From positions 5,824,001 through 5,888,000 of the forward strand of contig OZ241867.1 of the NCBI GenBank assembly GCA_965203175.1: a stretch of 64,000 bases of DNA. Direction: 5' to 3'. This DNA comes from Candidatus Latescibacterota bacterium (GTDB lineage: Bacteria; Latescibacterota; UBA2968; UBA8231). This document shows, piece by piece, positions 2 through 37,944 of this stretch (its first letter is position 1; the number at the start of each line of letters is the position of its first letter). The notes beneath the pieces are model-generated. The model had not been told where the DNA came from and searched no databases. It saw only the letters and a program-made list of their open reading frames with translations. The translations under genes and the position numbers were made by a program.

Positions 2-1009
2 TTTCTCGATAGCTTTGACTACTCAAAGAGGTTATGGATAATAGATGTTGCCCGTCAGTGGGAGCACTTCTTCTTCGACATGCCTGACCACGTTTTTGAC
101 ACCCCGACCACCATCTCAGTAGGAGATCGCACTATCCGTCTTAAAGAGGGTGAGGTCATAGACGATATACGTATCTATGTGGATAAGCCGACAACAGAGG
201 AGATGAAAAGATCTAGTAGTGTATGGACTGACGACAGGCCCGAAGGCTTTGCTAGTGTTCCCCTATTTCGCCCTGACGGTGACGTTCCCCTTATAGCCCG
301 GATTACAATAGATGACGAGCAAATAAATTCAAACTTGGACAGTTTTTTTGCACCTCCCGACGCCCCTGAAATACACTGGAGGCGCATCTTTCAACACGAG
401 ATGGGCCATGCTATGGGCATCGGGTCATCTCCAGTTTGGGACCGGTATGTAGTATGGGAACGAGTTCCAGATGGTCTTCGGCCTGGGAAGACGATCTGGA
501 CAGCGTGGTTTACAGGGCCTAATGCCATGCGAGAGTACCGCAATATGCTTGAGGCTCCTGCACTTGGGGAAGATGGTCTTCCTATAAACGATCAGACCCT
601 AACAGCAGATTTAATGAAAGTTTCCTTCTCCAATGATCATGCCACAGTAGTCATTGATTACGCGGAACTAGCCGACAAGGGGATTCCACTAAGCATCAAC
701 ACCCTCGTTTCTCCAAGGCGAGCTTATCATTGGGGTTTAGTAATGCAGTGGGCATTTTTTAGCGCTTATTATATACGAGAAAATGATCTGCCAAATGTAA
801 CAAACATTTCGCTAGGCACATTTCACGACATAGGATGGAATGTCAATTATACAGCCGGGGCCGAAACAATCCCAATGGGCTCCTCCATATTGCCATGCAG
901 GCTTTTAGGCGATTACGGCAACTTCCGTCTATGTACGCGTCCCAGCAGCGGCAAGGTCGTAGTCAACGACACTCCCACTGCCCATTCCCATTGGTGGGGC
1001 GTCCACTGA
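2..1009 (+). CDS. Leishmanolysin-like (M8-related) zinc metalloprotease, 5' partial
   Basis: Frame is open from the window start (FLDSFDYSKRLWIIDVARQWEHFFFD precedes the Met at 80). Contains HExxH (HEMGHAMGIG), FTGPNA, a downstream HW and ISLGTFHDIGWNV. Lower GC than the flanks. Confidence 0.7.
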   Translation, partial: FLDSFDYSKRLWIIDVARQWEHFFFDMPDHVFDTPTTISVGDRTIRLKEGEVIDDIRIYVDKPTTEEMKRSSSVWTDDRPEGFASVPLFRPDGDVPLIARITIDDEQINSNLDSFFAPPDAPEIHWRRIFQHEMGHAMGIGSSPVWDRYVVWERVPDGLRPGKTIWTAWFTGPNAMREYRNMLEAPALGEDGLPINDQTLTADLMKVSFSNDHATVVIDYAELADKGIPLSINTLVSPRRAYHWGLVMQWAFFSAYYIRENDLPNVTNISLGTFHDIGWNVNYTAGAETIPMGSSILPCRLLGDYGNFRLCTRPSSGKVVVNDTPTAHSHWWGVH

Positions 1010-1193
1010 CCGCTGGCACGGCAATTCCGCAACGTACCCTCGAAGAGATTGCCTGCAACGGGCACTTCTGCGACTTATCGTTGCCGAAGATTCCTAATAA
1101 TCGTTGCCGAAGATTCTATCGGCTAGTTGTTTTTACAACCCTAGCCTCGCGGGTAATCGTGGATATTGCCAATCCTCAAACGGAGACTACAAC

Positions 1194-2267
1194 ATGAACT
1201 CACGCCCCCAAATACTCATCGCCTGCAACAAGCACGTGCGCGAGCAGTACCTCGCCGCGACCGATTTCGCACGCCTCGAAGCCTTCGCCGACTGGGACTG
1301 GTTCGAATGCGAAGGCGGCGGCATTTACGACACCAACGCAGATCCCGAGATCGCCCATGCGCTAGGCGAGCGGCTAGGTGGTTACGACGGACTAGTGGTC
1401 TGCCACGGCTGCCCAACGGTCGATGCCGCGATCTTGGAACAGACCTCCAACCTGAAAATCATCGGCGAGTTGGAAGGCGACCGCTTTGCCAGCCGCATCG
1501 ACGTCGAGGCCGCCTGGGAGCGGGGTGTCTGCACGGTCGATACGACCAACGGCTCGTCGTATCCAGTGTCCGAGTGGGCCTTGGCGCTCATTATCATTGC
1601 CCTGCGCAACGCCGGTGCCCAATTCCGCCGCCTCATCGCCGGCAACGTGAGCCCTCGTCCGCAAAGCGACTTTGGCTTCATCCACGGCGATCTGACCGGC
1701 AAGCGCGTCGGCCTGATCGGCTGCGGGCACATTGGCCGGCGGCTAATCCAATTTTTGCGCCCCTTCCAGACCGAAGTGTGGGTGTTTGATCCCTATCTGG
1801 CGCGGGAGATGGCCGACGCCGTCGGCTTCCTCAAAACCTCGTTGGACAACGTGATGTCGCAGTGCGATGCCATCGTCTGCCTAGCCCCGCACACCCCGCG
1901 CACCGAGCGCATGATTGGCCAACGAGAGCTAGACCTGATCCAGCCGGGCGCGGTGTTCGTCAATGTGTCGCGCGGTAAAGTAGTGGATTCGGATGCGCTA
2001 GTGAGGCGGCTCAAGCGGGGCGACATCGTCGCCGGTCTAGACGTGTTCGACCCGGATGTGGGCGAGGACAACGCCTATGGCGACAAGGAGATTCTCCACT
2101 TGGAAAACGTCTTCGTCACTCCGCACATCGCCGGCGTGACCGTACAGAGCTACCCGCGCTTTTTCGAGCTGATGGTCGACGAACTCAACCGCTTCTTCCA
2201 CGGGCACGAGACCCTTTTCGACCTAACGCCGCGCTCCATCGCCAACCGCCGGGGTAGTGAGAGTTGA
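1194..2267 (+). CDS. D-isomer-specific 2-hydroxyacid dehydrogenase (NAD-binding)
   Basis: GxGxxG (GCGHIG), NVSRG, GLDVF and TPHIAG motifs. ATG at 1194 has GGAG upstream. Confidence 0.9.
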   Translation: MNSRPQILIACNKHVREQYLAATDFARLEAFADWDWFECEGGGIYDTNADPEIAHALGERLGGYDGLVVCHGCPTVDAAILEQTSNLKIIGELEGDRFASRIDVEAAWERGVCTVDTTNGSSYPVSEWALALIIIALRNAGAQFRRLIAGNVSPRPQSDFGFIHGDLTGKRVGLIGCGHIGRRLIQFLRPFQTEVWVFDPYLAREMADAVGFLKTSLDNVMSQCDAIVCLAPHTPRTERMIGQRELDLIQPGAVFVNVSRGKVVDSDALVRRLKRGDIVAGLDVFDPDVGEDNAYGDKEILHLENVFVTPHIAGVTVQSYPRFFELMVDELNRFFHGHETLFDLTPRSIANRRGSES

Positions 2268-2269
2268 CT

Positions 2270-3061
2270 ATGCTGACCCCACTCCAAGTCGGCCAATTCC
2301 GCGCCATGGGTTTCCTCAAGCTGGAGGCGTGCCTGACGGCAGACGAGATAGCCCAGTTCGAGGCGGCGTACAACAGGCTGATCGCTGGGGGCTCGGTCTA
2401 CGACTACTTTGAGGATAACCTCGGGCAGCCGAGCCGGGGCACGCGCAAGCAGGATCGCTGTGCCGAGTTGGACGACGACTTCGCCAGCTTTGTCGAGCAT
2501 CCGCGCATCACCGCGGCGCAGCAGGACATTTTCGGGCGACCGTGTCTGTTCCACGGCGGCGGGGAAGTCTGGCTGAACAGGAGTGATACGCCGTGGCACA
2601 GCGACGTGCTGGGCGATCGAGACCGGGACCCGGATTTCTACACCATCAAGGCTGCGATCTACCTCGACGAGTTGGAGGCGGATTCTGGATCGCTGAACGT
2701 GATTCCCGGCAGCCACTTCCCGGCGTACGGCCAAGCCCTGTTCGACGAATGCGGATACAGGGAAGGGGGAATTCGCCCGCGTCTGCACCTTGCGGACCCG
2801 CCCGGGGCAGTAGCAGTGGCGACGCGGCCCGGCGACGTGGTCTTGTTCGACACGCGCATCTGGCATTCGGCCCGTGGCCGCCAGGGCGGCCGGCGCACCG
2901 CGTTTATCAGCTATGTGCCCGATCCCGGGGATTCGCCCCGACGGAGGGAGCAGGTCCGCGCCCTGATCCGGCCGTTCCCCTATACCGATCACCTGATCGA
3001 GACTGCCGGTCCTCGCAGGCGGGCCATGGTCGCGCGCCTGCGGGAACTGGCCATTGCCTGA
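2270..3061 (+). CDS. Phytanoyl-CoA dioxygenase (PhyH) family Fe(II)/2OG oxygenase
   Basis: HxD (WHSD), IYLD, GSLNVIPGSH, PGDVVLFD..IWH. Alternative TTG start at 2264 overlaps the upstream stop. Confidence 0.88.
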   Translation: MLTPLQVGQFRAMGFLKLEACLTADEIAQFEAAYNRLIAGGSVYDYFEDNLGQPSRGTRKQDRCAELDDDFASFVEHPRITAAQQDIFGRPCLFHGGGEVWLNRSDTPWHSDVLGDRDRDPDFYTIKAAIYLDELEADSGSLNVIPGSHFPAYGQALFDECGYREGGIRPRLHLADPPGAVAVATRPGDVVLFDTRIWHSARGRQGGRRTAFISYVPDPGDSPRRREQVRALIRPFPYTDHLIETAGPRRRAMVARLRELAIA

Positions 3062-3075
3062 GTATGAAACCGCTT

Positions 3076-3966
3076 CTAGGCGAGCAATCCCCGCAGGTAG
3101 TCGACGGCCAGGCCAATGGCCTCGAGGTCGCTCACCGCATTGCCCTGGCCCTCGAAGACGATGGACATATTGCCGTTGAAGTCGACTTGGCGGAGAATTT
3201 CGACAATGCGCTCGTAGTCGAGCCACTCCTCCCGGCCGCGGTCGATTTTGTATATTTTGGCCCGCACATAGGTGGCGTGGGGCGCGGTCTGCTCCATGAA
3301 GTCATAGAAGTCGACCGCGGGATCCTCGGTCCCGGAGGGCGCCGCGCCCGGCGAGCCTTGCCACCAGCCCGTGTCGAGGATGAAGGTGAAGTTTTCGCGG
3401 TTGACATCGCGCAGTATTTTGAGAATATCGTCCCCAGTGGGCGCGATGACCGGGGCGTGGTTGTGAAGGCCGACGAACACGCCTTTGCCGGCGGCGTAGT
3501 CGCAGACCTCCTGGAAGCTGCCAATGGCGTCCTGCCACAGGACGCGGCGGTCGACGGCTGCGGCGGGGATGCCGCCGCCGAAGAGGCGGACCAGGGGCGC
3601 GCCCATAAAGGCGGCCAGATCAATGCCCTCTTTGACTTCGGCAATGCGCCGGCGGCGTTCGGCTTGGGGCAGGGCAACGCCCTGGGGGCGGCCGTCGATC
3701 TGCTCGACGCCGACAAAGCCGCGGCCCACGCCCAAAAAGCCAATGGGCAGGCCGCACTGCTGGCAGAGGGCCTTGATGGAGCGCAGATAGGCCGGGTCCC
3801 GGGCGCGGAAGCCGCGGAAGAGCTGAAAGTCGACCACGTCGAGGTCCCAGGCGCGGATCTGGCGCACCAAGGCGGCGATGTCCAGCCAGTTGCGCGGGTC
3901 TTCCTTGTCGGCATAGGGCAGGTCTTCGGCGACCCGCAGCATGGCGTTGCAGCCGAGTTTGATCAT
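3076..3966 (-). CDS. Sugar phosphate isomerase/epimerase family (xylose isomerase-like TIM barrel)
   Basis: GAPLVRLFGG, GLHNH, ILDTG and SIVFEG motifs of the AP_endonuc_2 family. Confidence 0.85.
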   Translation of the reverse strand: MIKLGCNAMLRVAEDLPYADKEDPRNWLDIAALVRQIRAWDLDVVDFQLFRGFRARDPAYLRSIKALCQQCGLPIGFLGVGRGFVGVEQIDGRPQGVALPQAERRRRIAEVKEGIDLAAFMGAPLVRLFGGGIPAAAVDRRVLWQDAIGSFQEVCDYAAGKGVFVGLHNHAPVIAPTGDDILKILRDVNRENFTFILDTGWWQGSPGAAPSGTEDPAVDFYDFMEQTAPHATYVRAKIYKIDRGREEWLDYERIVEILRQVDFNGNMSIVFEGQGNAVSDLEAIGLAVDYLRGLLA

Positions 3967-4074
3967 GCGATGTCCGTGTGTCCGGGGCGCCTCGGGCAGA
4001 AGTCACCCATGCGCCCTACCTTGACCAAGTTCCCAAAAAGATCCTTATAATACACTACACAGAGAAGTTGAACC

Positions 4075-5193
4075 ATGCATCTGATTGCCCCGACGGCAAC
4101 GATACAAGTACCGGACTGGGTCGCGTACCCGGATCGCGACTGGATACAGATCACGCCCGCCGAAGCCGGTCTCGATGCGCGGAAATTCGCCGCCTGGCTA
4201 GCCAGCCTCAATGTCAGGGGGGCGAGCTTTGGCGGCGAGGACCACAGCGGCGACCAGCACGGCGCCGTGCTCACGCGCGGCGGATACCTAGTACACGCCT
4301 GGGGCGACCCCCACTATCGGCATCAGACGGCCTCGGTCGGCAAGGCCCTGACGTGGGTGGCGCTGGGCGCGGCCGTTGGCGACGGCCTCCTCGACCCGGA
4401 CGAGCCAATCCACCAGACGTGGACCGGGGCCGGGCAGCTATCGCACGAGCACAAGTACCTCGATTGCGGCCACCACCAAAAACTCACCTGGCGCCACTTG
4501 ATCGGGCGGCGCGATGAGAGCCTGCACTGGGGCGGCTTCCCCTTTGAAATCGGCAACCGCTGGCGGGAGCAGCGCACGGGTCTCGAAGAGCGGGACGCAG
4601 TTCCCGGCATCCCCGCATGGGCCCAGTGGACGGGCGATCCCTTCTACGACTGCTACGCCCATGCCGAACCGGGCACCCAAGGGCTGTACAGCAGCGCCGG
4701 CTTCTGGCGGTTAGGCCAAGCGCTGACCTACGTTTGGGGCCGCGACCTCAAGGACGTGATCCAGGAGCGCCTATTCGACGCCATTGGCATCCCGTACGAG
4801 CGCTGGGACTGGCTCGCCGGCGGCGACGTAAAAGAGCAAAAACACCTCTACCCCACCATTCCAGACGCGTACACCTACCTCGATCCACCCTACGAAATTG
4901 GCGGCCAAGTCGTGCGCAGCGGCCCGGGTTGGGTCGTCATCAGCGCCTCGGATCTGGCGCGCTTCGGCCACCTCAATGCCACCCGGGGCATGTGGAAGGG
5001 GGTGCGCGTCATCGACGCCGCCTGGCTGCGCGGCCACGGCGGGGGCAATAAGAGCGGGGCCAGCGGCGAGTGCGAGCACTTCACGGCCATGGGCGTGGTG
5101 ACGACGATCGGGCTGCCCGAGTACAGTCACGGGGTCGAGACCAAGAGCATCCTCCCCGACGACTTCTTCGTCGCAGAGGTCCAGCCGAGCTAG
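4075..5193 (+). CDS. Serine hydrolase (beta-lactamase-like family)
   Basis: SxxK (SVGK), PGT..LYSS, LF..IG and SASDLARFG motifs. Confidence 0.8.
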   Translation: MHLIAPTATIQVPDWVAYPDRDWIQITPAEAGLDARKFAAWLASLNVRGASFGGEDHSGDQHGAVLTRGGYLVHAWGDPHYRHQTASVGKALTWVALGAAVGDGLLDPDEPIHQTWTGAGQLSHEHKYLDCGHHQKLTWRHLIGRRDESLHWGGFPFEIGNRWREQRTGLEERDAVPGIPAWAQWTGDPFYDCYAHAEPGTQGLYSSAGFWRLGQALTYVWGRDLKDVIQERLFDAIGIPYERWDWLAGGDVKEQKHLYPTIPDAYTYLDPPYEIGGQVVRSGPGWVVISASDLARFGHLNATRGMWKGVRVIDAAWLRGHGGGNKSGASGECEHFTAMGVVTTIGLPEYSHGVETKSILPDDFFVAEVQPS

Positions 5194-5202
5194 CGAAAAA
5201 AC

Positions 5203-7920
5203 TCAGCGAGCGGAATCGAGGCAGTAGAGGACGGAGTCCTCGCCGATGAAGAGGATTTCGATCTCGCCGTCGCCGTCGACATCGGCCAAAGTCAGATCAC
5301 CCGGCCTCGTGGGCAAGTCCAACTGCCACCTCAGATGCGGTGCGTCGTCGCGGTCGCCGACCGCAAAGAGCGTCTGCTCGACCGCAAAGAGAAATTCATC
5401 CCGGCCATTGCCGTCGATGTCCGCGGAATAGACCGCAGTGCGCGCATTGCCCGGCAGCGGCCATTGCCATTTCTCCGCTCCGGTGGCCGCGTCCAGACAG
5501 CGCAGGCCCTGGCCCTCTTCCCAGCCGGTGATGCCCAACTCCAAACGACCGTCGCCATCGACATCGCCGACGCCAGCCATGCTGGCTCCACCGGCGTGGT
5601 ACCAGAGTACGCTGGCGTCCAAGGTGGTAAGCCCGTGGTGGTAGGGACCGCACCAGAGCAATTCCTCGCGGCCGTCGCCATCGAAATCGGCCACCATCGG
5701 CTGGCAATAGGCGGCCCAGACACCGGCGAACAGACCGCTGGCCGCGGATATGGAATGGACCAGGTCACCCGTGGTGCCGCGGGCGGCCATGTAATTGACC
5801 GGATACAGGCCAATTACATCCTCTAGGCCATCGCCGTCGATATCGGCCGAAGCCACGAAAGAGCCCCCAGCCCCCCAACCTCTTTCGTCCGCTCCGGTTT
5901 GGTCCGTACGCACTTCGCGCAGGTGCCACAGAGGCTCGCCATCCGCGCCCCGCAAGACCCAGGCTTCGTCGCTGTGCATGGTGCTGCGGCGGGCAGAGAC
6001 CCATATATCGTCGCGCTCGGCGTCGTTGTAACGTCCGCTCCACCAGCTAGTAATCCCGCCAAAATTCCACGGCGGATGGGGACCGGGAAAACCCGCCACC
6101 CGTCGGCGCCAGCGCGGATTGCCGTCGAGGTCAGCCGCAACTATTTCACCCTCTCCAGAGGTCGTCTGATCCGCGTACACCACCTCGGGCCGGCCGTCGC
6201 CGTCGAGGTCAGCGATGAGGGCTGGTCCGGCTCCCGGAAGGCGCCAGCGCAGTATTGCCGAATCTCCTTGGACCCGCGGCGGCTCCAGCGCTAGAATGTG
6301 GCGACTGGCTCCTTCGAAGATCACTCGGGTTGGCTGGCGGCTGCTAGCTGCCACGGCTACTGGCCGCGTCTGCATACCCGATCCGTCCGCGCCAGGGGTG
6401 CCAGCAGCTCCTGTGCGCTCCAGGCGCAGAGCGCGAATCTGAGCACCCTCTGCGACACCCAATTCAGCTATTGCGCCGTGCGTCTGGTGGAAGCTGACGA
6501 GCACCTCGTCAACCCCGTCGCCGTCTATATCGGCGGAGGCCCGCCATTGCATCCGGGAGCGGGCCGGAAGGTCGAAGCTCCACACCTGCTCAGTGCCCCC
6601 AGCCCGGTCGAGGACAAAGGCGCGCAACAGTTCAGTCCGATCATCTCTGGTTTCGACGGTGAAAAAGCCGCGCTGGCCCGAGGCCGTCAGGGACGCAGTT
6701 ACGATATCGTCGGTGCCGCGCGCCACAATGGTCGAATGGGTGGGAGGAAGCTCGGTCGCCGCTGTTACCCACTGTCCGCGCGCCTGGCGCCACAGGGGTA
6801 TGGCCGACTCGCCATCGACGCGCAGGAGGCTCAGCTCGGCATTGGTGGGCACCAGCAGTCCCGCGCTGCGAGAAACAAAGAGTTCGGGCACCCCGTCGTC
6901 ATCGACATCAGCGGTGCCGTGTAGATATTGCCGGGGCAAGTCGAGTACAGTCTCGCCGGTGAGTGCGTCGCAGGCGACTACATGCCATTGGCCGTCGTCC
7001 CACTCGTTGAAAAGGTTGAAGACAATCTCGATGCGGCCATCGCCGTCGATGTCCTGCACAGGATTGGGCCCGGGGCGAATGATGCGGCTCTTGCTCTGGA
7101 TATTTTGCTCGATATCGCGCCGCCACAGCAGCCTCAGCCGATCCCCCTCGTTTTTGACCACGTCGATGTGCATGGCAAAGTCGGCGATAACGACAAAATC
7201 TAGCAGGCCGTCGCCATCCACGTCAGTGGTGCAGAAGAAACCGTAGTTGCGCAGGCCGTGCATGTCGAGCAAGTGCTTGGTGCGGCCGCTCTGCGCGTCG
7301 AGGACAATGATCCGGTAATGAGGCGCAAAGGCGATTTCGAGGCGGCCGTCGCCATCTATGTCGGCGACGACAAAGTTGGTGTTCTGGACCGTGTGGAATA
7401 CCTCCGACCGCCATATTTCCCGCTTCCGCCCCTCCTCGTGGGCATAGCAAACCACTTGCCTGGGATCGGTCCCAGGAGCGTCCGCAACCAGTGGGAATTC
7501 AACTGTCTGCAGCCCGGGGACCTCGGGCAACAGCGCGGCCGCACGACCCGGATCGGGCACCAACTGGCCGTTGCCGTACAAATCGACCAAGCGGGGTCCA
7601 AGGCCCCATTGCCGGTCCTCGGCAGCGCGGAGGTGGGGCGGGGTGAATTGCTCGGACCCAGCGCTCGTCTCCGGCGAGGAGCTAGTTGCCGCGTGTACAG
7701 CCGCCCACACTTCGCCCCCCTCGATCAAGTATTGCCAAGCCACGACGGGCGCTTGGCGCATGGCTCCCGGCAGGACGGCCCGGCCCGTGAGGCGAGTGTC
7801 GCCGCGATACATGGGCCACGCTCCAATTGCCGTGGAAATGCGATCCATCGCCAATACACCAAAGGAAGACGAGAATAGGAGGCCGACTGCGGCGGCGATC
7901 GGCGTTAGCCAACTGCTCAA
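5203..7920 (-). CDS. Secreted FG-GAP/VCBS-repeat beta-propeller protein
   Basis: N-terminal signal-like segment, WPMYRGD, and about 11 DxDGDG-type Ca-binding repeats. TTG start overlaps the upstream stop. Confidence 0.8.
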   Translation of the reverse strand: MSSWLTPIAAAVGLLFSSSFGVLAMDRISTAIGAWPMYRGDTRLTGRAVLPGAMRQAPVVAWQYLIEGGEVWAAVHAATSSSPETSAGSEQFTPPHLRAAEDRQWGLGPRLVDLYGNGQLVPDPGRAAALLPEVPGLQTVEFPLVADAPGTDPRQVVCYAHEEGRKREIWRSEVFHTVQNTNFVVADIDGDGRLEIAFAPHYRIIVLDAQSGRTKHLLDMHGLRNYGFFCTTDVDGDGLLDFVVIADFAMHIDVVKNEGDRLRLLWRRDIEQNIQSKSRIIRPGPNPVQDIDGDGRIEIVFNLFNEWDDGQWHVVACDALTGETVLDLPRQYLHGTADVDDDGVPELFVSRSAGLLVPTNAELSLLRVDGESAIPLWRQARGQWVTAATELPPTHSTIVARGTDDIVTASLTASGQRGFFTVETRDDRTELLRAFVLDRAGGTEQVWSFDLPARSRMQWRASADIDGDGVDEVLVSFHQTHGAIAELGVAEGAQIRALRLERTGAAGTPGADGSGMQTRPVAVAASSRQPTRVIFEGASRHILALEPPRVQGDSAILRWRLPGAGPALIADLDGDGRPEVVYADQTTSGEGEIVAADLDGNPRWRRRVAGFPGPHPPWNFGGITSWWSGRYNDAERDDIWVSARRSTMHSDEAWVLRGADGEPLWHLREVRTDQTGADERGWGAGGSFVASADIDGDGLEDVIGLYPVNYMAARGTTGDLVHSISAASGLFAGVWAAYCQPMVADFDGDGREELLWCGPYHHGLTTLDASVLWYHAGGASMAGVGDVDGDGRLELGITGWEEGQGLRCLDAATGAEKWQWPLPGNARTAVYSADIDGNGRDEFLFAVEQTLFAVGDRDDAPHLRWQLDLPTRPGDLTLADVDGDGEIEILFIGEDSVLYCLDSAR

Positions 7921-29801: not shown

Positions 29802-30113
29802 ATGAATCGCAGCGAAGCCTACATCGCCGACGAAAAATTGACTTACCTACTGCACGACGAAAGCAAGAACGGTCTATTCGTTCTATTAGGCTATGACGAC
29901 CACAATGTCGAGGACTTACGCAGAGGTCTGCTAATCATCGTCAGGACGCAACTACCTGCCGAACGCATTGCAACTGAGCACGGCACCAAATACATTATCC
30001 TTGGATATATTGACACACCATCATACGGCCTATTTCATCTGCGCACCGTGTGGTTTATCCGCCACGGCGAGACCGCGCTGCGTTTTGTAACGGCCGTTCC
30101 ACAAAGGAGTTAG
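29802..30113 (+). CDS. DUF6883-like protein (putative toxin/nuclease)
   Basis: KL.YLL..K..F..LGY, HGTKY.I.G.I.TP, TVW.I..GE..RFVTA.P pattern. Confidence 0.7.
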   Translation: MNRSEAYIADEKLTYLLHDESKNGLFVLLGYDDHNVEDLRRGLLIIVRTQLPAERIATEHGTKYIILGYIDTPSYGLFHLRTVWFIRHGETALRFVTAVPQRS

Positions 30114-30116
30114 TCC

Positions 30117-30371
30117 ATGAATACCCTAGCCGAACCCCTAGCTGAACCCCTAGCCGAACACCGACGGGCTGTCCTGACAGCCGATCAACCCCAAGCCGAA
30201 CTGATCGTCGGCGATGTCGGGATCGTGGTTTTCATTCACGGCGAAGGGGTCGCTTACGAAGTAGAGTTTCCCAACCGAGCCGTCCTCACCCTAGAGGCCG
30301 ACCAAGTGCGGCCCCTCGGCATGGAAGAAATTCTCCACGTGCGCCCTCAACCACCCTCCCCCAGCGGATGA
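30117..30371 (+). CDS. DUF4926-like protein (putative antitoxin)
   Basis: VL..D.P..L..GDVG.VV..H..AYEVEF..LTL..EILHVR pattern. AAGGAG RBS lies inside the upstream gene end. Confidence 0.78.
   Translation: MNTLAEPLAEPLAEHRRAVLTADQPQAELIVGDVGIVVFIHGEGVAYEVEFPNRAVLTLEADQVRPLGMEEILHVRPQPPSPSG
30123..30159. repeat. 12-bp tandem repeat x3 (CCCTAGCYGAAC) encoding LAEP-LAEP-LAEH
   Basis: Read directly from the sequence. Confidence 0.8.
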
Positions 30372-33316: not shown

Positions 33317-34033
33317 TTATGCCCACTGCCCTTGTAGCCAGCCAACGACCTTTTCGACCATGACCTGCGCGTGCTCGCTAAAGACGTGATCGGCCCCGTC
33401 GATGACGACGAGTTCGCCGTTGTCCCTCGCTCGGGCGAGAATATCGTGCGAGTCATCAATCGGTACCACGTCGTCCTCGCTGCCGTGTACCAACAGCCAA
33501 GGCACTACAATCTCGGCCCCGCGTCGCACCACGGTGTCGATCTGGGCCATGTCGTCCATGTAGGCTTGCGAGAGCGGGCAGTCTGGCTCATCCCACATGC
33601 ATCCCTCGTCGGGCACCTCCTCGCCAAACTCGCGCTCGGCAAAGGCGTGCGTATGCACCATGCCCGCCAGGGAGACGAGCAGGCGAATGCGCTCGTCGCG
33701 GCTCAAGACGCCGACTGCTCCCCCCATGCTGTGGCCGACATAGCAGACCGAATAGCCGTCTAAAGCGTCGAGCACCGCGCCGAGATCTTCAACTTCTTTG
33801 GAGATCGTCGCGTCGGCAAAGCGGCCCTCGGACGCGCCATTGCCGGCAAAGGAAAAGCGCAACGCGTGGATGCCAGCGGCCGCTAATCTCTCGGCGAGCG
33901 CTACGACAAAGGGGCGGTCCTTGTTGCCGGTCACGCCGTGCCCCAAGACGGCGATGTGCCGCGATCCCTCCGTGCCGGCGTGAAACGTGTAGTCCAGCAT
34001 TTCGCCAGACGGGTTGCGAATGGTTCCGAACAT
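33317..34033 (-). CDS. Alpha/beta hydrolase
   Basis: HG..G.K, GNGASEG, nucleophile GHSMGG, HGSEDDVVP and ADHVF motifs. Confidence 0.9.
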   Translation of the reverse strand: MFGTIRNPSGEMLDYTFHAGTEGSRHIAVLGHGVTGNKDRPFVVALAERLAAAGIHALRFSFAGNGASEGRFADATISKEVEDLGAVLDALDGYSVCYVGHSMGGAVGVLSRDERIRLLVSLAGMVHTHAFAEREFGEEVPDEGCMWDEPDCPLSQAYMDDMAQIDTVVRRGAEIVVPWLLVHGSEDDVVPIDDSHDILARARDNGELVVIDGADHVFSEHAQVMVEKVVGWLQGQWA

Positions 34034-34176
34034 GGGGTTCATCCTTCTCATTTTGGTGTTCGATCTGTACGTCGTTAGGCTGTCTGCGCTTGAGAACATC
34101 CTCCGCCAGTGTTCTCCTTATCCACATGGCTAGCGAATCGCTGCTTGGATTACTGTTTGGGGCAATAGATTATAGT

Positions 34177-35268
34177 TTACTCGACTAAGTCGCCGAGACC
34201 ACAGGCCGAACCAAAGGTTTCTATCTTCCATCGCCCCTGCGAGCCGAGCGGGTGCCGCAGCCGAATCGCGCCTGGTGACATCGCTAGCTGTCGAAGTTCG
34301 ATGCCGGTACTGCGAATGGTTCGGTCAACCATACTATGCCTGCGCACTTGGGATGGTGCGGACAAACCGGTGCTCGCCGTTGCATAGGCGTTTGTTGTGT
34401 GTGCGAGAATACGCCGCACATCGCGTTGGCTCGGCAGTACATGGCCTCCCCTACACCATGGTGCCAGCACCGCGACGGGATTGGATTCCAGCATCCGGTT
34501 CCACACATCCGGTTCATCGGCGTTTTCCGATCCATGGTGCGGAACCTTGAATACTGACGCCTTGTCGGTTGGCCGCTCCTCACTCTGCAGAATTTCTACC
34601 CAACCGCGCTTTTCCAGATCCGAACCGAGTAGCACCGCAATATCATCAACGCCGATCCAGAGCACGACTGACATATCGTTGGGAGTAACATATGGAATCC
34701 GTGTCTTTGTCCGATTCTCTCTGGGGAACAGATTGCCAATAGATTGCAGGAAGTTCCAAAAAGCGACGTCACTAGGCGACAATGACCAGACCTCACAATT
34801 GCCCCAAGCATGGATACGTCGGTTGGCCGCAGCAAACGTGAGGCGCGACGCCTTGGACTCAAGCCAAGTGAATACGCGGTGTATCTCTCGAACTCCTGAA
34901 CCGGCCTCGGAGAGGTGGCGACTTTCCAAAGCACCAACGGCCGCGAGAAATTCATTGTTGAGGAGAGCATTGGCACAACAGAAATCGGCCTTGCTGCAGA
35001 CTTCCACTAGCCTCGTCATCCCGCATATGTGATCGTCGTGCCAGTGAGTCGCCACAACCAGATCGACCACTTGCGCCGGATCGACGCCGATGCTTTCGAG
35101 ATACTCTAAGGCACGTGGGTTTCCTTCGGCGTTGACACAGGAATCAACTATCACCCAACCACCGGAACCTATATGTAGGACGATGCTCTCGCCGTAGCCG
35201 GGGCCGAACAACACGACCTCAAACTCATCCTCGTCTGGCGGGATTCCCGCCTCCCCAGCTTCTGTCAC
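34177..35268 (-). CDS. MBL-fold metallohydrolase (ComEC/Rec2-like, putative nuclease)
   Basis: GPGYGESIV, VDSC, HxHxDH (THWHDDH), N..S, LLGSDLE and KVPHHGS motifs. GTG start overlaps the upstream TGA. Confidence 0.85.
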   Translation of the reverse strand: MTEAGEAGIPPDEDEFEVVLFGPGYGESIVLHIGSGGWVIVDSCVNAEGNPRALEYLESIGVDPAQVVDLVVATHWHDDHICGMTRLVEVCSKADFCCANALLNNEFLAAVGALESRHLSEAGSGVREIHRVFTWLESKASRLTFAAANRRIHAWGNCEVWSLSPSDVAFWNFLQSIGNLFPRENRTKTRIPYVTPNDMSVVLWIGVDDIAVLLGSDLEKRGWVEILQSEERPTDKASVFKVPHHGSENADEPDVWNRMLESNPVAVLAPWCRGGHVLPSQRDVRRILAHTTNAYATASTGLSAPSQVRRHSMVDRTIRSTGIELRQLAMSPGAIRLRHPLGSQGRWKIETFGSACGLGDLVE

Positions 35269-35879
35269 TGCTCGAAAGCCGCCATGATTTTACGAGCCCA
35301 TTCCTCGCCATCCCGAAGGTCAGTCTTGGTAATCGCCGGAAGATCGCGAAACACGATATAGGAAACACTCTTTTTCGCTCCCGCCGTGCGCTCGTAGCCG
35401 ATCACCCAGCGGAAGATGCTTCCGACCTGCAATTTGGCAGCATCGTCTTCTAATATTTCATCTAGGGGGATATTCGCTTCTTCCCCCGCATAGGTCGCCT
35501 TTGCCGTCAGGTCGGTCAGTCTTGCAGTGAATTCCGTGTCGTTTATCTCAGTGACATATCCTTCCCACTCTTGTAGGGCATGGAGTGTCACAGACGGGGA
35601 TGGGCTTACTGGAAGCTCCGGTAGTTTCACAATCCAGGAGAAAACATCGCTGTCCTGTTCATGGTCGGCGAACGCTGGCAAGGTCTCCTCTTCCATATCT
35701 TGGTCCTGGTCGTGCACAATTGTTGTCGGAGAGTCCGTTCCCTGCTCTAACGCCAAGGTGATAGCTTGGTCCGCATTCTGAACGAGGGGCTCCTGCTGCA
35801 CAGCATTCTCACCGAAATCGCTGAGCTTTTCATGCGGATTGGCATGTTGTACCGCTGTGGATTGAACCGCCTGCAACAT
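35265..35879 (-). CDS. Hypothetical protein with acidic disordered N-terminus and C-terminal QEWEG beta-rich (OB-like) domain
   Basis: LQEWEGYVTEI..FTARLTDL..EA.I..GSIFRWVIGY. Starts 3 nt after the upstream stop. Confidence 0.7.
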   Translation of the reverse strand: MLQAVQSTAVQHANPHEKLSDFGENAVQQEPLVQNADQAITLALEQGTDSPTTIVHDQDQDMEEETLPAFADHEQDSDVFSWIVKLPELPVSPSPSVTLHALQEWEGYVTEINDTEFTARLTDLTAKATYAGEEANIPLDEILEDDAAKLQVGSIFRWVIGYERTAGAKKSVSYIVFRDLPAITKTDLRDGEEWARKIMAAFEQ

Positions 35880-35882
35880 GAA

Positions 35883-36605
35883 CTAGTCCTCCTTTGTCTT
35901 TGCTAAGGACATAATGTGATCAATGATACCGTTGCTACGCTCAAGTGACGTATCGAAGTTGTCATCGAAAAGCTCCATCAAGCGCTCGGCAGTTTCCAAC
36001 TCGGCATTGTCGATGGCATAGTGATCGTTGACTCCTACATAAACTCCAGTTTGCCTATTTCTAATCCGGTAAGACGGTTCCACCGTAACGTTGATTTGAC
36101 CTCCCGTTGGCCTTCCATCGGGGGCGAGTTGCGACATCGTCAGCGACTTCATCCCGCCATGCCTGCCATCTAGATCGAGGTCACGCCCCCAAGTCCCCCA
36201 CGGTTCCACTGGTGCCAGCGTTCTGCCAATTCGATCCCGTTCGGCCAAACTTTCCACCCGAAAATGAACGTCGCGATTGATTCCGAACGCCCTGAGGGGC
36301 GTATGATGCAGGTACTCCTTGAATATCCGTACGACGAGGTCTCGCAGGCGAACGTGAGGTGCCTGCAATGTTTCGACGAAAAATTTATCAACCTGGACCT
36401 GCAGGCGAAGCCAGCCAGCGACAAAGTTAGTCACCTGCGGATTAGCAATATGTAATTCCGCGCTGTCTGCGACACTCTCCGGCAGAAGACCGTGCAGCGC
36501 AAACCAAGCCGGCGTGAAGATCGCCGGGTTGAAATCCCCGAGCAAGACGACACTCACGCCGCTGATCTCCGGCTCGATCCTCATGTTATCTATCCTCTTC
36601 GACAT
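35883..36605 (-). CDS. Hypothetical protein, TIGR04255-like
   Basis: SVVLLGDFNPAIFTPAWF, HTPLRAFGIN and N.HY pattern. Start may be 36584 (AGAGGA RBS). Confidence 0.65.
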   Translation of the reverse strand: MSKRIDNMRIEPEISGVSVVLLGDFNPAIFTPAWFALHGLLPESVADSAELHIANPQVTNFVAGWLRLQVQVDKFFVETLQAPHVRLRDLVVRIFKEYLHHTPLRAFGINRDVHFRVESLAERDRIGRTLAPVEPWGTWGRDLDLDGRHGGMKSLTMSQLAPDGRPTGGQINVTVEPSYRIRNRQTGVYVGVNDHYAIDNAELETAERLMELFDDNFDTSLERSNGIIDHIMSLAKTKED

Positions 36606-36765
36606 AGCTGGTGTCGTGCACGGTCATGTCACGAATCCAGCTTCACGAGATAATCTGTCCTATCTGCGCCGCCGTCAAGAGTACGCGTAGCGTCATCAGC
36701 ATCCGGTGGGCATGTCTGCGATGTATCGCTAGTAGGCGGATAGACCTCGAATATCGTTGGTGTAT

Positions 36766-37944
36766 TCATGACCCCAAAAATTCACAAGTCTGCCGCGCCA
36801 CCACCAATTCCTCGTCAGTGCGCAGCACGTAAATGGGCACTCGGCTCGACTCAGCGTGCAAGCTGCCCTCGCCTTGCACAGCCTCGTTTTTAGCCGCATC
36901 CATCACCACTCCCAAAAATTCCAAGTCGCGCAGAATCTGGCCGCGTACGGCAGTCGAGTACTCGCCAATCCCGCCGGTAAAGCTAATCGCGTCTAGCCCA
37001 CCCATCTCCACCACAAAAGCCCCCAGCCAGTCGCGCGACGACGTCGCCAACACGGCTATGGCCAAGGCACAGCGCTCGTCCCCGCTTTCCGCACCCGCTT
37101 CAATGTCACGCATATCGCCGTACCCGCAAAGCCCTACGAGGCCGCCCTCGTTAGCGCACTGCGCCAACACCTCGTCCCACGGTCGCCCCTCGTTGCGCAT
37201 AACCAAGTCCAGCGCGTACGGATCCAAGTCGCCGATGCGGTTGTTCTGCGGCAGGCCACTCTGCGGGCTTAGTCCATGCGACGCCCCCTGCGAGACTCCG
37301 TCCTTTACCGCGCACAGCGACGAGGACCCACCTAAGTGCATGTTGACATGTTTGAGGTCAGCACGCCCCGCCAGTTCCACGACCTTCTCAGCGGCGTAGA
37401 GGTGGCTGGCTCCGTGGAAGCCGTAGCGCTGGATGCCGTACTGTTCGTACCAAGCGTAGGGCACTGCGTACATTTTGCGCCGCTGCGGCATCGCACCGTG
37501 GAACGCCGTCTCAAAGCATCCGACCCGCCGCGCCTTGGGGGCCACCCGCGCAAACTGCCGGATCGCCGCCACGTACGCGGGATTGTGCGCCGGAGCCAGC
37601 GGATAAAAGTCCTCCATCCGCCCGACGATGTCCTCGTCGAGTTCGACCACCCCGGAAATAGCGCGCGCGTGAACAGCCTTAAACCCCACGGCGTCCAACT
37701 CCTCCACAGAAGCCAACACCCCCCCCTCGGCCAAGCGCGCGAGGGCCTCGTCAATCGCGCTGGCGTGGTCGGGTAACTCCACGGCCTGCTCAACCTCGTC
37801 GGCCCTGCCAATCTCGAAGGTGTGCACCGAGCCTTGACCCCCGATCCGATCCATGCCGCCCCGCGCCAAAACCACCTCCTCGGGCATGGAAAAGACCTTG
37901 TACTTAAACGAGGTACTGCCGAGATTAGAAACTAGGATTTTCAT
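36766..37944 (-). CDS. ackA: Acetate/propionate kinase
   Basis: NLGSTSFKY, LAPAHN, FETAFH, RYGFHGASH, HLGG..S, FTGGIGE and TDEE motifs. Confidence 0.9.
   Translation of the reverse strand: MKILVSNLGSTSFKYKVFSMPEEVVLARGGMDRIGGQGSVHTFEIGRADEVEQAVELPDHASAIDEALARLAEGGVLASVEELDAVGFKAVHARAISGVVELDEDIVGRMEDFYPLAPAHNPAYVAAIRQFARVAPKARRVGCFETAFHGAMPQRRKMYAVPYAWYEQYGIQRYGFHGASHLYAAEKVVELAGRADLKHVNMHLGGSSSLCAVKDGVSQGASHGLSPQSGLPQNNRIGDLDPYALDLVMRNEGRPWDEVLAQCANEGGLVGLCGYGDMRDIEAGAESGDERCALAIAVLATSSRDWLGAFVVEMGGLDAISFTGGIGEYSTAVRGQILRDLEFLGVVMDAAKNEAVQGEGSLHAESSRVPIYVLRTDEELVVARQTCEFLGS

Follow-up and report, generated by a model that had tools for sequence, protein, structure and literature searches.

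What is the function of three short, tightly coupled genes that separate an acetate kinase gene from a hydrolase gene in a Latescibacterota genome? The genes, which we call g1, g2 and g3, are three co-oriented open reading frames (ORFs) on the minus strand at positions 36605..34177 of a 64,000-nucleotide stretch of Candidatus Latescibacterota bacterium DNA (contig OZ241867.1, positions 5,824,001 to 5,888,000), referred to throughout as the window. An initial annotation of this DNA had proposed a defense system matching no named type, with a TIGR04255-like g1 as chaperone or sensor, g2 as a labile antitoxin or nucleic acid-binding adaptor and g3 as a nuclease effector. From their genomic context, we consider it probable, with some reservation, that the three genes form a self-contained, horizontally mobile cassette that defends its host against phages or other mobile elements. 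Because a mobile cassette ending in a putative nuclease gene sits here where bacteria keep their antiviral systems, it is probably an immune system rather than a housekeeping function.

Conservation and spread of the cassette

In the window, the stop codon of g1 (TAG) is followed by TTC and the ATG of g2, leaving a gap of 3 nt, with AAGGAGGA immediately 5′ of that ATG; the g2 stop and the GTG start of g3 overlap as GTGA. The GC content of the three genes is 0.51-0.56, as opposed to 0.60-0.65 in the flanks on both sides, where Pfam identifies acetate kinase (ackA; PF00871, 2.2e-89) and an alpha/beta hydrolase. In all these respects, the locus is as the initial annotation had described it.

When one genome per species was scanned with the g1 alignment, 80 loci were found; together with one viral contig, they make up the 81 loci analyzed here. 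Identity of g1 across the 80 loci ranges from 56 to 85%, and their record titles place them in at least a dozen phylum-level groups, among them Latescibacterota, Gemmatimonadota, Alpha- and Gammaproteobacteria, Acidobacteriota, Binatia, Rhodothermales, Spirochaetia, Entotheonella, Poribacteria, Nitrospira, SAR202 and Thermodesulfobacteriota. Searching with tblastn, we found g2 directly downstream of g1 at every one of the 81 loci and g3 at 80 of them. The overlap between g2 and g3 is 4 nt at 58 of the 68 loci with a nearly full-length g3, and a gap of 2-5 nt separates g1 from g2 at most loci. Among 41 related genomes, too, g1 and full-length g3 always occur in the order g1-g2-g3. The same arrangement is present on plasmids of Adhaeribacter swui and Pantoea agglomerans, where g3 (30% and 27% identity, respectively) is preceded by two genes recognized as g1 and g2 by hhalign or hmmsearch, and where the cassette adjoins recombinases. 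Nine IMG/VR contigs encode g3 at 31-45% identity; in eight of them the order is g1-g2-g3, and the ninth is truncated by the end of the contig. Since the order is kept across chromosomal loci, plasmids and viral contigs, the three families are conserved together; a lack of such conservation had been named as grounds for refuting the initial proposal.

Within the genus, the distribution of the cassette is patchy. Of the 41 related genomes, 13 contain g1, at different genomic places and in one case in two copies, and some copies are decayed. These decayed copies (G003:C69:13237-15019, G025:C1:762818-764753 and G009:C1:185127-185658) consist of stop-split frames or fragments; the cassette has therefore been lost as well as gained. 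Transposases or recombinases lie near it at L018, L038, L067, L091 and L092.

Embedding in Hma operons

Annotation of the neighbors brought out a recurrent frame in which the cassette is enclosed by genes of the Hma defense system, in the order HmaC (DUF499 ATPase), DUF7680, g1-g2-g3, HmaB (DUF1156 methylase) and HmaA (SNF2 helicase with a PLD domain). Matches to HmaC, HmaB and HmaA were obtained with tblastn at 22, 19 and 14 of the 81 loci, respectively, and whole or partial DUF7680 lies upstream of g1 at 28; at 18 loci the cassette stands between HmaC and HmaB. Some of these same loci hold further known or candidate defense genes in the slot, namely Septu (PtuA, 5 loci), Nsn (2) and PDC-M38 (1). 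The neighbors of 13 diverse loci (128 proteins) were annotated with Pfam, and 67 proteins, 63 of those and 4 plasmid-locus neighbors, with PADLOC; a type IV Mrr enzyme (L075) and an SngC-like helicase (L091) also adjoin the cassette. An apparent AAA_16 protein at L021:2821-7221 is an antisense ORF overlapping HmaC, and we dropped this annotation.

Embedding of this kind has been used as a guide to new defense systems. According to a preprint (10.1101/2024.01.29.577857), embedded genes are present in 62.7% of 1,485 Hma systems, 22.8% of these genes are parts of known defense systems, and seven of nine embedded candidates that were tested protected E. coli. Our cassette shows both sides of this pattern, as it is embedded in a known multi-gene system at 18 of the 81 loci and free of any Hma trace at 53. 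Proximity to defense genes, which had been suggested as a check, is thus found in the Hma frame, in the sharing of its slot with Septu, Nsn and PDC-M38, and in the chromosomal site described below.

The window itself gives only chance-level tblastn matches to HmaA, HmaB and HmaC (E>=0.6). What it does contain, at 36732..36646, is a sequence encoding the last 29 residues of DUF7680, corresponding to residues 136-164 of the L018 protein (52% identity, E 1.3e-4). DUF7680 belongs to Hma, because it also follows HmaC in the Hma system of genome G001, which lacks the cassette. The cassette in the window thus appears to be the remnant of an Hma island with an embedded g1-g2-g3, persisting intact without Hma. 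At five loci, g1 is directly preceded by a second copy of the C-terminal part of DUF7680 (about residues 108-155; Table 1), even where the locus also has a full DUF7680 at another place. From this it would seem that the cassette travels with the DUF7680 tail; exchange by recombination in that tail is also hinted at.

A shared insertion site in sister genomes

The ackA/hydrolase site has different contents in different sister genomes. In G010 it is empty, and ackA and the hydrolase gene overlap there as TAATG. Septu occupies the site in G002 and G019; in G023 it is joined by a STAND-like ATPase and an AAA_16-TPR protein, and in G001 by a complete Hma with embedded Nsn. Homology between the window and the empty site breaks off at 34033 and starts again at 36775, and homology to the occupied sites reaches 34045 and 36772-36775. 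Inside these limits, the three ORFs of the window are intact and have no phage neighbors. The site therefore presents a natural series (empty, Septu, Septu with Hma, and our cassette with an Hma scar) that documents cargo outliving its carrier system.

Another species of the genus carries the cassette at the same site (L010, OZ220721.1). Its g1 is 85% identical to that of the window, compared with 58% for g2 and 54% for g3, and by this difference the cassette is a mosaic. At the nucleotide level, homology of 84% runs from ackA through g1 into g2, with a break near window position 35006. The mosaic divergence suggests allele exchange of the nuclease end.

Two further observations concern the same site. 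In G001 (L102, G001:C1:3085300-3100800), the stretch between Septu and HmaC includes, at 2330-2431, a 102-nt duplicate of the ackA 3′ end with 91% identity to window 36847..36746; cargo arriving in successive insertions seems to bring with it a copy of the tail of the upstream gene. In G023 (L101, G023:C1:4693000-4699200), the region 313-4192 encodes a 452-aa STAND-like ATPase (ATPase_2, AAA_16, nSTAND1) and an 843-aa AAA_16-TPR protein. This pair adjoins a Septu with truncated PtuB, and PADLOC gave no confident name to either protein.

The three protein families

The metallo-beta-lactamase (MBL) site of g3 is intact: residues H75-W-H-D-D-H80 (HxHxDH: H75, H77, D79 and H80), D217 and H244-H245-G246 are invariant in 62 of 62 aligned sequences, the family alignments being made without seven loci whose extended coordinates contained stops. 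Pfam recognizes Lactamase_B (PF00753, 7.1e-8) in the N-terminal part only. Among solved structures, sequence comparison finds only the beta-lactamase-like domains of ComEC (9ic4_A, E 9.5e-4; 30bt_A, 3.3e-3), and both motif regions of g3 align to these domains. The best NCBIfam match is likewise ComEC (PRK11539, 3.3e-6), at 25.8 bits against a cut-off of 969 bits, and TIGR00361 scores 21.4 versus 190 bits; further matches to 6A-MBL and Avs1a MBL (19.2 bits versus a 420-bit cut-off) are all far under their cut-offs, and there are weak RNase Z rows. PADLOC models match in part (LmuA PDLC03854, 2.4e-12; RTasMBL, 4.7e-12; PDC-M48B, 1.4e-7; Avs1a, 2.8e-4), and phrog_28593 of the PHROGs collection matches over nearly the full length (2.1e-37). 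We found no hydrophobic segment in g3 (maximum 19-residue Kyte-Doolittle value 1.53), and, compared with ComEC/Rec2, neither a polytopic competence domain nor a full-length model score. The initial annotation, which had described an intact MBL site of the ComEC nuclease type without a membrane domain, was right on this point. These motifs and the kinship to ComEC suggest that g3 would be a nuclease, and DNA its presumed substrate.

The model of g2 has two distinct halves. Residues 1-85 have a pLDDT (predicted score in the local distance difference test) <50, and residues 98-203 fold with a pLDDT of ~90 into a five-stranded barrel with a C-terminal helix. Conservation follows the same division, with a variable N-terminal half and a conserved barrel and helix (96-204) that include the motifs QEWEG and FRWVIGYER. 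A disordered N terminus and a small beta-barrel, as first described, are thus what the model predicts. The acidity attributed to that N terminus is real in the window copy, which has a net charge of -16; the family median is -4 and the range extends from -16 to +6, so the acidic tail is not a conserved feature. Structural comparison of the barrel with VIA returns barrels of OB type as the nearest folds, namely the C-domain of eIF5A (Z 6.9, root-mean-square deviation (rmsd) 2.1 over 62 residues), EF-P, and the cold-shock domains of Unr (Z 6.1-6.7); the best Foldseek match has an E of 0.028. The nearest ESM Atlas cluster to the barrel (score 0.93) is 58% viral, and the sole fold match in BFVD is a Cronobacter phage protein (E 4.2e-5, TM 0.32/0.54).

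Family alignments show g1 to be the best conserved of the three proteins, with a mean column identity of 65%, compared with 59% for g3 and 34% for g2. At E<=1e-3, it has 826 relatives in a word-indexed search and 2400 cluster representatives in a full profile search. Its AF2 model (pLDDT 81.6) is a two-lobed alpha/beta sandwich. The best Foldseek match, TBP, is weak (E 1.5e-4, TM 0.3-0.4, rmsd 12-13 A), as are those from VIA, the McsB/phosphagen-kinase catalytic domain (Z 7.7), AdoMetDC (Z 6.3) and TBP (Z 5.5). With all matches of g1 and g2 below the VIA reliability level of Z 8, and none of them decisive in Foldseek or VIA (best Z 7.7), we do not claim a TBP or kinase fold for g1.

The assignment of g1 to TIGR04255, in contrast, is rejected. 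No NCBIfam model matches g1 at E<=0.1, its score is below the membership threshold of >=30 bits against TIGR04255.1, and hhalign against a genuine member gives a probability of 0.06. A genome-wide search with the TIGR04255 model at E<=10 finds only C1:4681824-4682570, which is not g1, and none of 60 representatives of the g1 family matches the model at E<=0.01. The only source of the label is the automatic name of the nearest ESM Atlas cluster (0.98), and a literature search for the name TIGR04255 was without match.

The gene of this genome that truly belongs to TIGR04255 (119 bits) lies elsewhere, in L009 (G000:C1:4680324-4684070), where it heads a three-gene cassette with overlapping starts beside an oxidoreductase gene. 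Its genes, at 2262..1489, 1496..1116 and 1119..496 on the minus strand, encode proteins of 257, 126 and 207 aa, for none of which Pfam gives a match; this may be a separate unexplained cassette. The 126-aa product of its middle gene was considered as a relative of g2 and shows no relation (hhalign probability 0.3).

A predicted ternary complex

Prediction of the three chains together, with g2 as the scored partner, gave an ipSAE of 0.79 in three runs. Controls in which g2 was replaced scored 0.00 and 0.00, and the best control, with g3 replaced, reached 0.35. The ipSAE mark is reached by 116 of 157 solved complexes versus 2 of 215 mismatched pairs, a calibration that is only rough here because we used our own alignments and three chains. 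The runs agree in >=60% of contacts, with a partner pLDDT of 60-61. In the model, residues 96-203 of g2 touch residues 7-16, 40-44, 62-67 and 80-100 of g1 on one side and residues 103-143, 182-192 and 303-328 of g3 on the other; additional contacts are made to residues 25, 45, 49, 78 and 82 of g3, beside the HxHxDH motif. Nature provides five divergent g1-g2 fusion proteins of 425-438 aa. Two other candidates were not counted as natural fusions, P0241 (g2-g3), which reads as frameshifted after HHGS, and P0243, which is fused to FtsZ. The predictions and fusions support, short of demonstrating, a ternary complex in which g2 would bridge g1 and g3.

Proposed mechanism

We propose that the three proteins would form one complex, with g3, a ComEC-type MBL-fold enzyme, as its DNA-degrading effector. 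The barrel and helix of g2 would clamp g3 to g1, with g2 touching the rim of the g3 active site, and g1, possibly together with the variable tail of g2, would sense infection or foreign nucleic acid and release or direct the nuclease. Trigger and outcome are conjectural, and the latter could be either direct restriction or abortive infection. DNA-modification genes, HmaB included, recur nearby, as would suit a restriction-like nuclease able to read whether and how DNA is modified.

One form of this mechanism, which we put forward tentatively, is a protease-independent gating in which g2 locks the g3 DNase onto g1, an unclassified sensor, until a cue to g1 or to the g2 tail frees the nuclease; the cassette would then represent a new mobile defense family. 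It might, on the same tentative footing, pass among cargo slots of Hma, hotspots in chromosomes, plasmids and temperate phages. Its spread, at 57-85% identity of g1, takes in a dozen phylum-level groups, with many of its hosts coming from lineages known from marine sponges.

Comparison with known systems

Neither g1 nor g2 is covered by any model of Pfam (2025), NCBIfam r20 (June 2026), PADLOC-DB 2.0.0 or PHROGs, and, in keeping with the initial annotation, the cassette matches no named system in the PADLOC and NCBIfam releases. Our literature searches (TIGR04255, Hma, DUF499/DUF1156, 6A-MBL and MBL-fold anti-phage or ComEC proteins) found no description of the three genes, which supplements and newer tool releases may nevertheless list.

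The closest parallels in arrangement are the Hma-embedded candidates HEC-01 to HEC-09 and the PDC candidates. Our cassette occurs both between hma genes and alone, as the preprint expects of independent systems. They differ in sequence, since no HEC or PDC model, nor any other PADLOC model, matches g1 or g2 at E<=1. Of the PDC-M48 models, only those of the B component match g3, and weakly (1.4e-7, 7.4e-5 and 2.4e-3); the plasmid and viral versions of the cassette gave the same picture in PADLOC. The main text of the Hma preprint (10.1101/2024.01.29.577857) does not contain the words "MBL", "metallo" or "lactamase", and its supplementary tables may list such a cassette among the 376 that it finds embedded in Hma.

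In its presumed effector, which gives partial matches to PADLOC models of MBL proteins of Lamassu (LmuA), DRT (RTasMBL) and AVAST (Avs1a), the cassette may be akin to the pairs of an MBL nuclease and a protease in Hachiman, AVAST, Lamassu, DRT and canu, where the nuclease is a ComEC-like MBL-fold protein. PMC12799240 describes such MBL proteins as DNases in Hachiman and AVAST that are held inactive until triggered, as gated pro-DNases activated by a partner protease, and mentions MBL proteins in Lamassu and DRT as well; bioRxiv 2025.09.03.673762 and 2025.11.14.688446 also concern such pairs. Here the partners are g1 and a barrel protein, g2, instead of a protease, and g3 scores far below family level. 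Pfam finds no trypsin-like or caspase-like protease in the cassette, among its immediate neighbors in the window or among the 128 neighbors of the 13 sampled loci. Because the cassette has no protease, it would need a different means of controlling its nuclease.

The remaining resemblances are more distant. In ComEC, an OB domain stands alongside the MBL domain. With ComEC/Rec2, g3 shares the catalytic motifs, and a small barrel protein stands beside the nuclease much as the OB domain does within ComEC; the cassette differs in that its parts are separate soluble proteins, in lacking a competence domain and in being mobile and patchy. Like our cassette, toxin-antitoxin-chaperone modules are made up of three coupled short genes, with a disordered segment in one of them; unlike them, our cassette has no match to a SecB-like chaperone or to a known toxin or antitoxin family and has a predicted bridge in g2. 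TIGR04255 proteins are similar to g1 in length, and the genuine TIGR04255 gene in this genome likewise stands at the head of a three-gene overlapping cassette, but no sequence relation is detectable by hidden Markov model or hhalign.

Alternative explanations

Among the alternatives, the least unlikely, which we still regard as unlikely, is that the genes form a tripartite toxin-antitoxin or addiction module that stabilizes islands, plasmids and prophages, with g3 as toxin, g2 as labile antitoxin and g1 as helper or chaperone. Tight coupling of the genes, the disordered and fast-evolving N terminus of g2, its modeled contacts beside the HxHxDH motif of g3, and the presence of the cassette next to plasmid recombinases and in prophage-like contigs speak for such a module. 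Its parts, however, match no toxin-antitoxin or SecB-type chaperone family in Pfam, NCBIfam or PADLOC, and the conserved portion of g2 is not the tail but a folded barrel that, in the model, contacts both partners. The high conservation of g1 would be unusual for a mere helper, and g1-g2 fusions are unlike toxin-antitoxin-chaperone systems. An addiction module would in any case overlap with abortive-infection defense rather than exclude a defensive role.

We give rather little credence to a role in the service of the mobile element itself, in which the genes would serve to break down DNA of the host or of competitors, to process that of the element or to counter host defenses, the bacterial copies being relics. 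It is the viral contigs that speak for such a role. In L106 (IMGVR_UViG_3300009873_002594), a distant version of the cassette is found at 4732-7089, with the gene for the large terminase subunit on one side and the portal gene on the other, where cargo is unusual. In L107 and L112, the cassette has Ant, repressor, CII and replication genes beside it; in L108, L109 and L112, its neighbors include a Mom-like gene, DNA methyltransferases and Que genes; and in L110, endolysin and tail fiber genes are near. The phrog_28593 match of g3, the largely viral cluster of the g2 barrel and its fold match to a Cronobacter phage protein point in the same direction. Temperate phages, though, commonly carry host-defense cargo at such positions. 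Moreover, chromosomal copies of the cassette occur without other phage genes, at a hotspot common to Septu and Hma and inside Hma operons, and the window copy has intact ORFs and no phage neighbors.

That the cassette is an accessory of Hma, the nuclease arm of this methylase/helicase/ATPase system and inactive without it, seems to us very unlikely. The order HmaC-DUF7680-g1-g2-g3-HmaB-HmaA, fixed at 18 of the 81 loci, and the DUF7680 tail that accompanies g1 even where the rest of Hma is missing, as in the window, favor a close tie. Against it stand the 53 loci, both plasmids and the viral contigs without Hma genes; the slot, which also holds Septu, Nsn or PDC-M38, sometimes along with the cassette; the Hma of G001, which has DUF7680 but no cassette; and HmaA, which already has a PLD nuclease domain. 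Independent systems embedded in Hma are, in addition, what 10.1101/2024.01.29.577857 describes.

A housekeeping role in DNA uptake, repair or RNA processing with no link to conflict can be invoked from the resemblance of g3 to the nuclease domain of ComEC, in which OB and MBL domains are joined, and from the existence of MBL enzymes of the RNase Z and J type together with the weak RNase Z rows, but it is scarcely credible for a cassette whose g1 occurs in so few related genomes, at varied places and in one genome twice, is 57-85% identical across phyla, has a GC content below its flanks and is absent from an empty site in a sister genome, in a genome that has its own long ComEC-like frames (about 818 aa) elsewhere.

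Standing of the defense interpretation

Several observations weigh against reading the cassette as a defense system. No Hma trace was detected by tblastn at 53 of the 81 loci, and at five of the 13 sampled loci (L027, L029, L030, L039 and L042) the neighbors include no defense or mobility gene; the copies at L027, L029, L030 and L042 sit among ordinary metabolic or transport genes, and L039 has no defense or mobility match. Our counts of defense proximity stand without a background rate for randomly chosen genes of the same genomes. Truncation or interruption affects several copies, including about ten of g3 (L017, L023, L034, L048, L054, L062, L066, L073, L085 and L089). A tblastn search of the INPHARED phage collection with g3 was without a match, and in phage contigs the cassette is surrounded by genes for terminase and portal, replication and DNA modification, as would also suit a role in the service of the phage. 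Fold matches of g1 and g2 are only middling (VIA Z below 8), for which reason nucleic acid binding by g2 is at most a possibility, and the surface of the g2 barrel is occupied by protein contacts in the predicted complex.

Taken with these points, the defense interpretation of the initial annotation is well supported by context, through the conservation of the unit, the Hma cargo slot, the hotspot and the lack of a named system. Its specific roles are partly supported: g3 as nuclease effector and g2 as barrel adaptor would fit the motifs, the ComEC kinship and the complex model, and the TIGR04255 identity of g1 and a conserved acidic tail of g2 fall away. The cassette is likely an uncatalogued nuclease-based defense cassette with new partner proteins, a candidate found by embedding.

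If the cassette does defend, it would enlarge the group of systems based on ComEC-like MBL nucleases by a family in which two proteins are unclassified, and would reveal a second mode of controlling such nucleases, by a partner complex instead of proteolysis. The analysis also extends the guilt-by-embedding logic to genomes of uncultured symbionts, where the cassette is much commoner than in the cultured genomes behind PADLOC. Its cultured carriers, the plasmid-bearing Adhaeribacter swui and Pantoea agglomerans, make it testable.

Features of the locus

The features of the window and the duplicated DUF7680 pieces are listed in Table 1.

Table 1. Coordinates of the cassette, its insertion segment and associated features
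Feature	Sequence	Position	Strand	Description
g1	Window	35883..36605	-	ORF of 240 aa, first cassette gene; family start probably M8, giving 233 aa
g2	Window	35265..35879	-	ORF of 204 aa; disordered N terminus 1-95, barrel and helix 96-204
g3	Window	34177..35268	-	ORF of 363 aa; soluble MBL-fold hydrolase of the ComEC nuclease type; presumed DNase effector
DUF7680 3′-end remnant	Window	36646..36732	-	tblastn with L018 DUF7680; 41 nt upstream of g1
Inserted segment at ackA/hydrolase hotspot	Window	34034..36774	.	~2.7 kb; homology breaks versus sister sites
Sigma-70-like promoter match	Window	36650..36678	-	TTGACG, 17 nt, GATTAT; upstream of g1; not above chance
Duplicated DUF7680 piece	L019	7806-7943		
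Duplicated DUF7680 piece	L020	7638-7781		
Duplicated DUF7680 piece	L021	7786-7929		
Duplicated DUF7680 piece	L055	7765-7923		
Duplicated DUF7680 piece	L058	7829-7972		

A promoter and terminator scan of the region remained at chance level, with 2 sigma-70-like sites observed versus 1.8 expected. In a run labeled as metatranscriptome, we found contigs that lie on g2, span the g1/g2 junction (35739-36101, with 4 differences over 363 positions) and reach over the start of g1 (36567-36800), with g3 uncovered; as carry-over of DNA is possible, we take these contigs as a hint and do not count them as evidence of expression. As to habitat, labels were taken into account only for two runs marked 'sponge metagenome', those of runs with small shares being set aside. 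Compared with the hydrolase start in use at the empty site (MFGTIRNP, about window 34033), that of the longest ORF of the hydrolase gene (window 33317-34099, minus strand) lies 22 codons further upstream. The additional N terminus, located in inserted DNA, is probably not translated. Elsewhere in the window, at 29802-30371 on the plus strand, a low-GC patch (0.51) contains two small adjoining genes that match DUF6883 (1e-09) and DUF4926 (5.6e-10) and look like a small mobile pair, possibly toxin-antitoxin-like.

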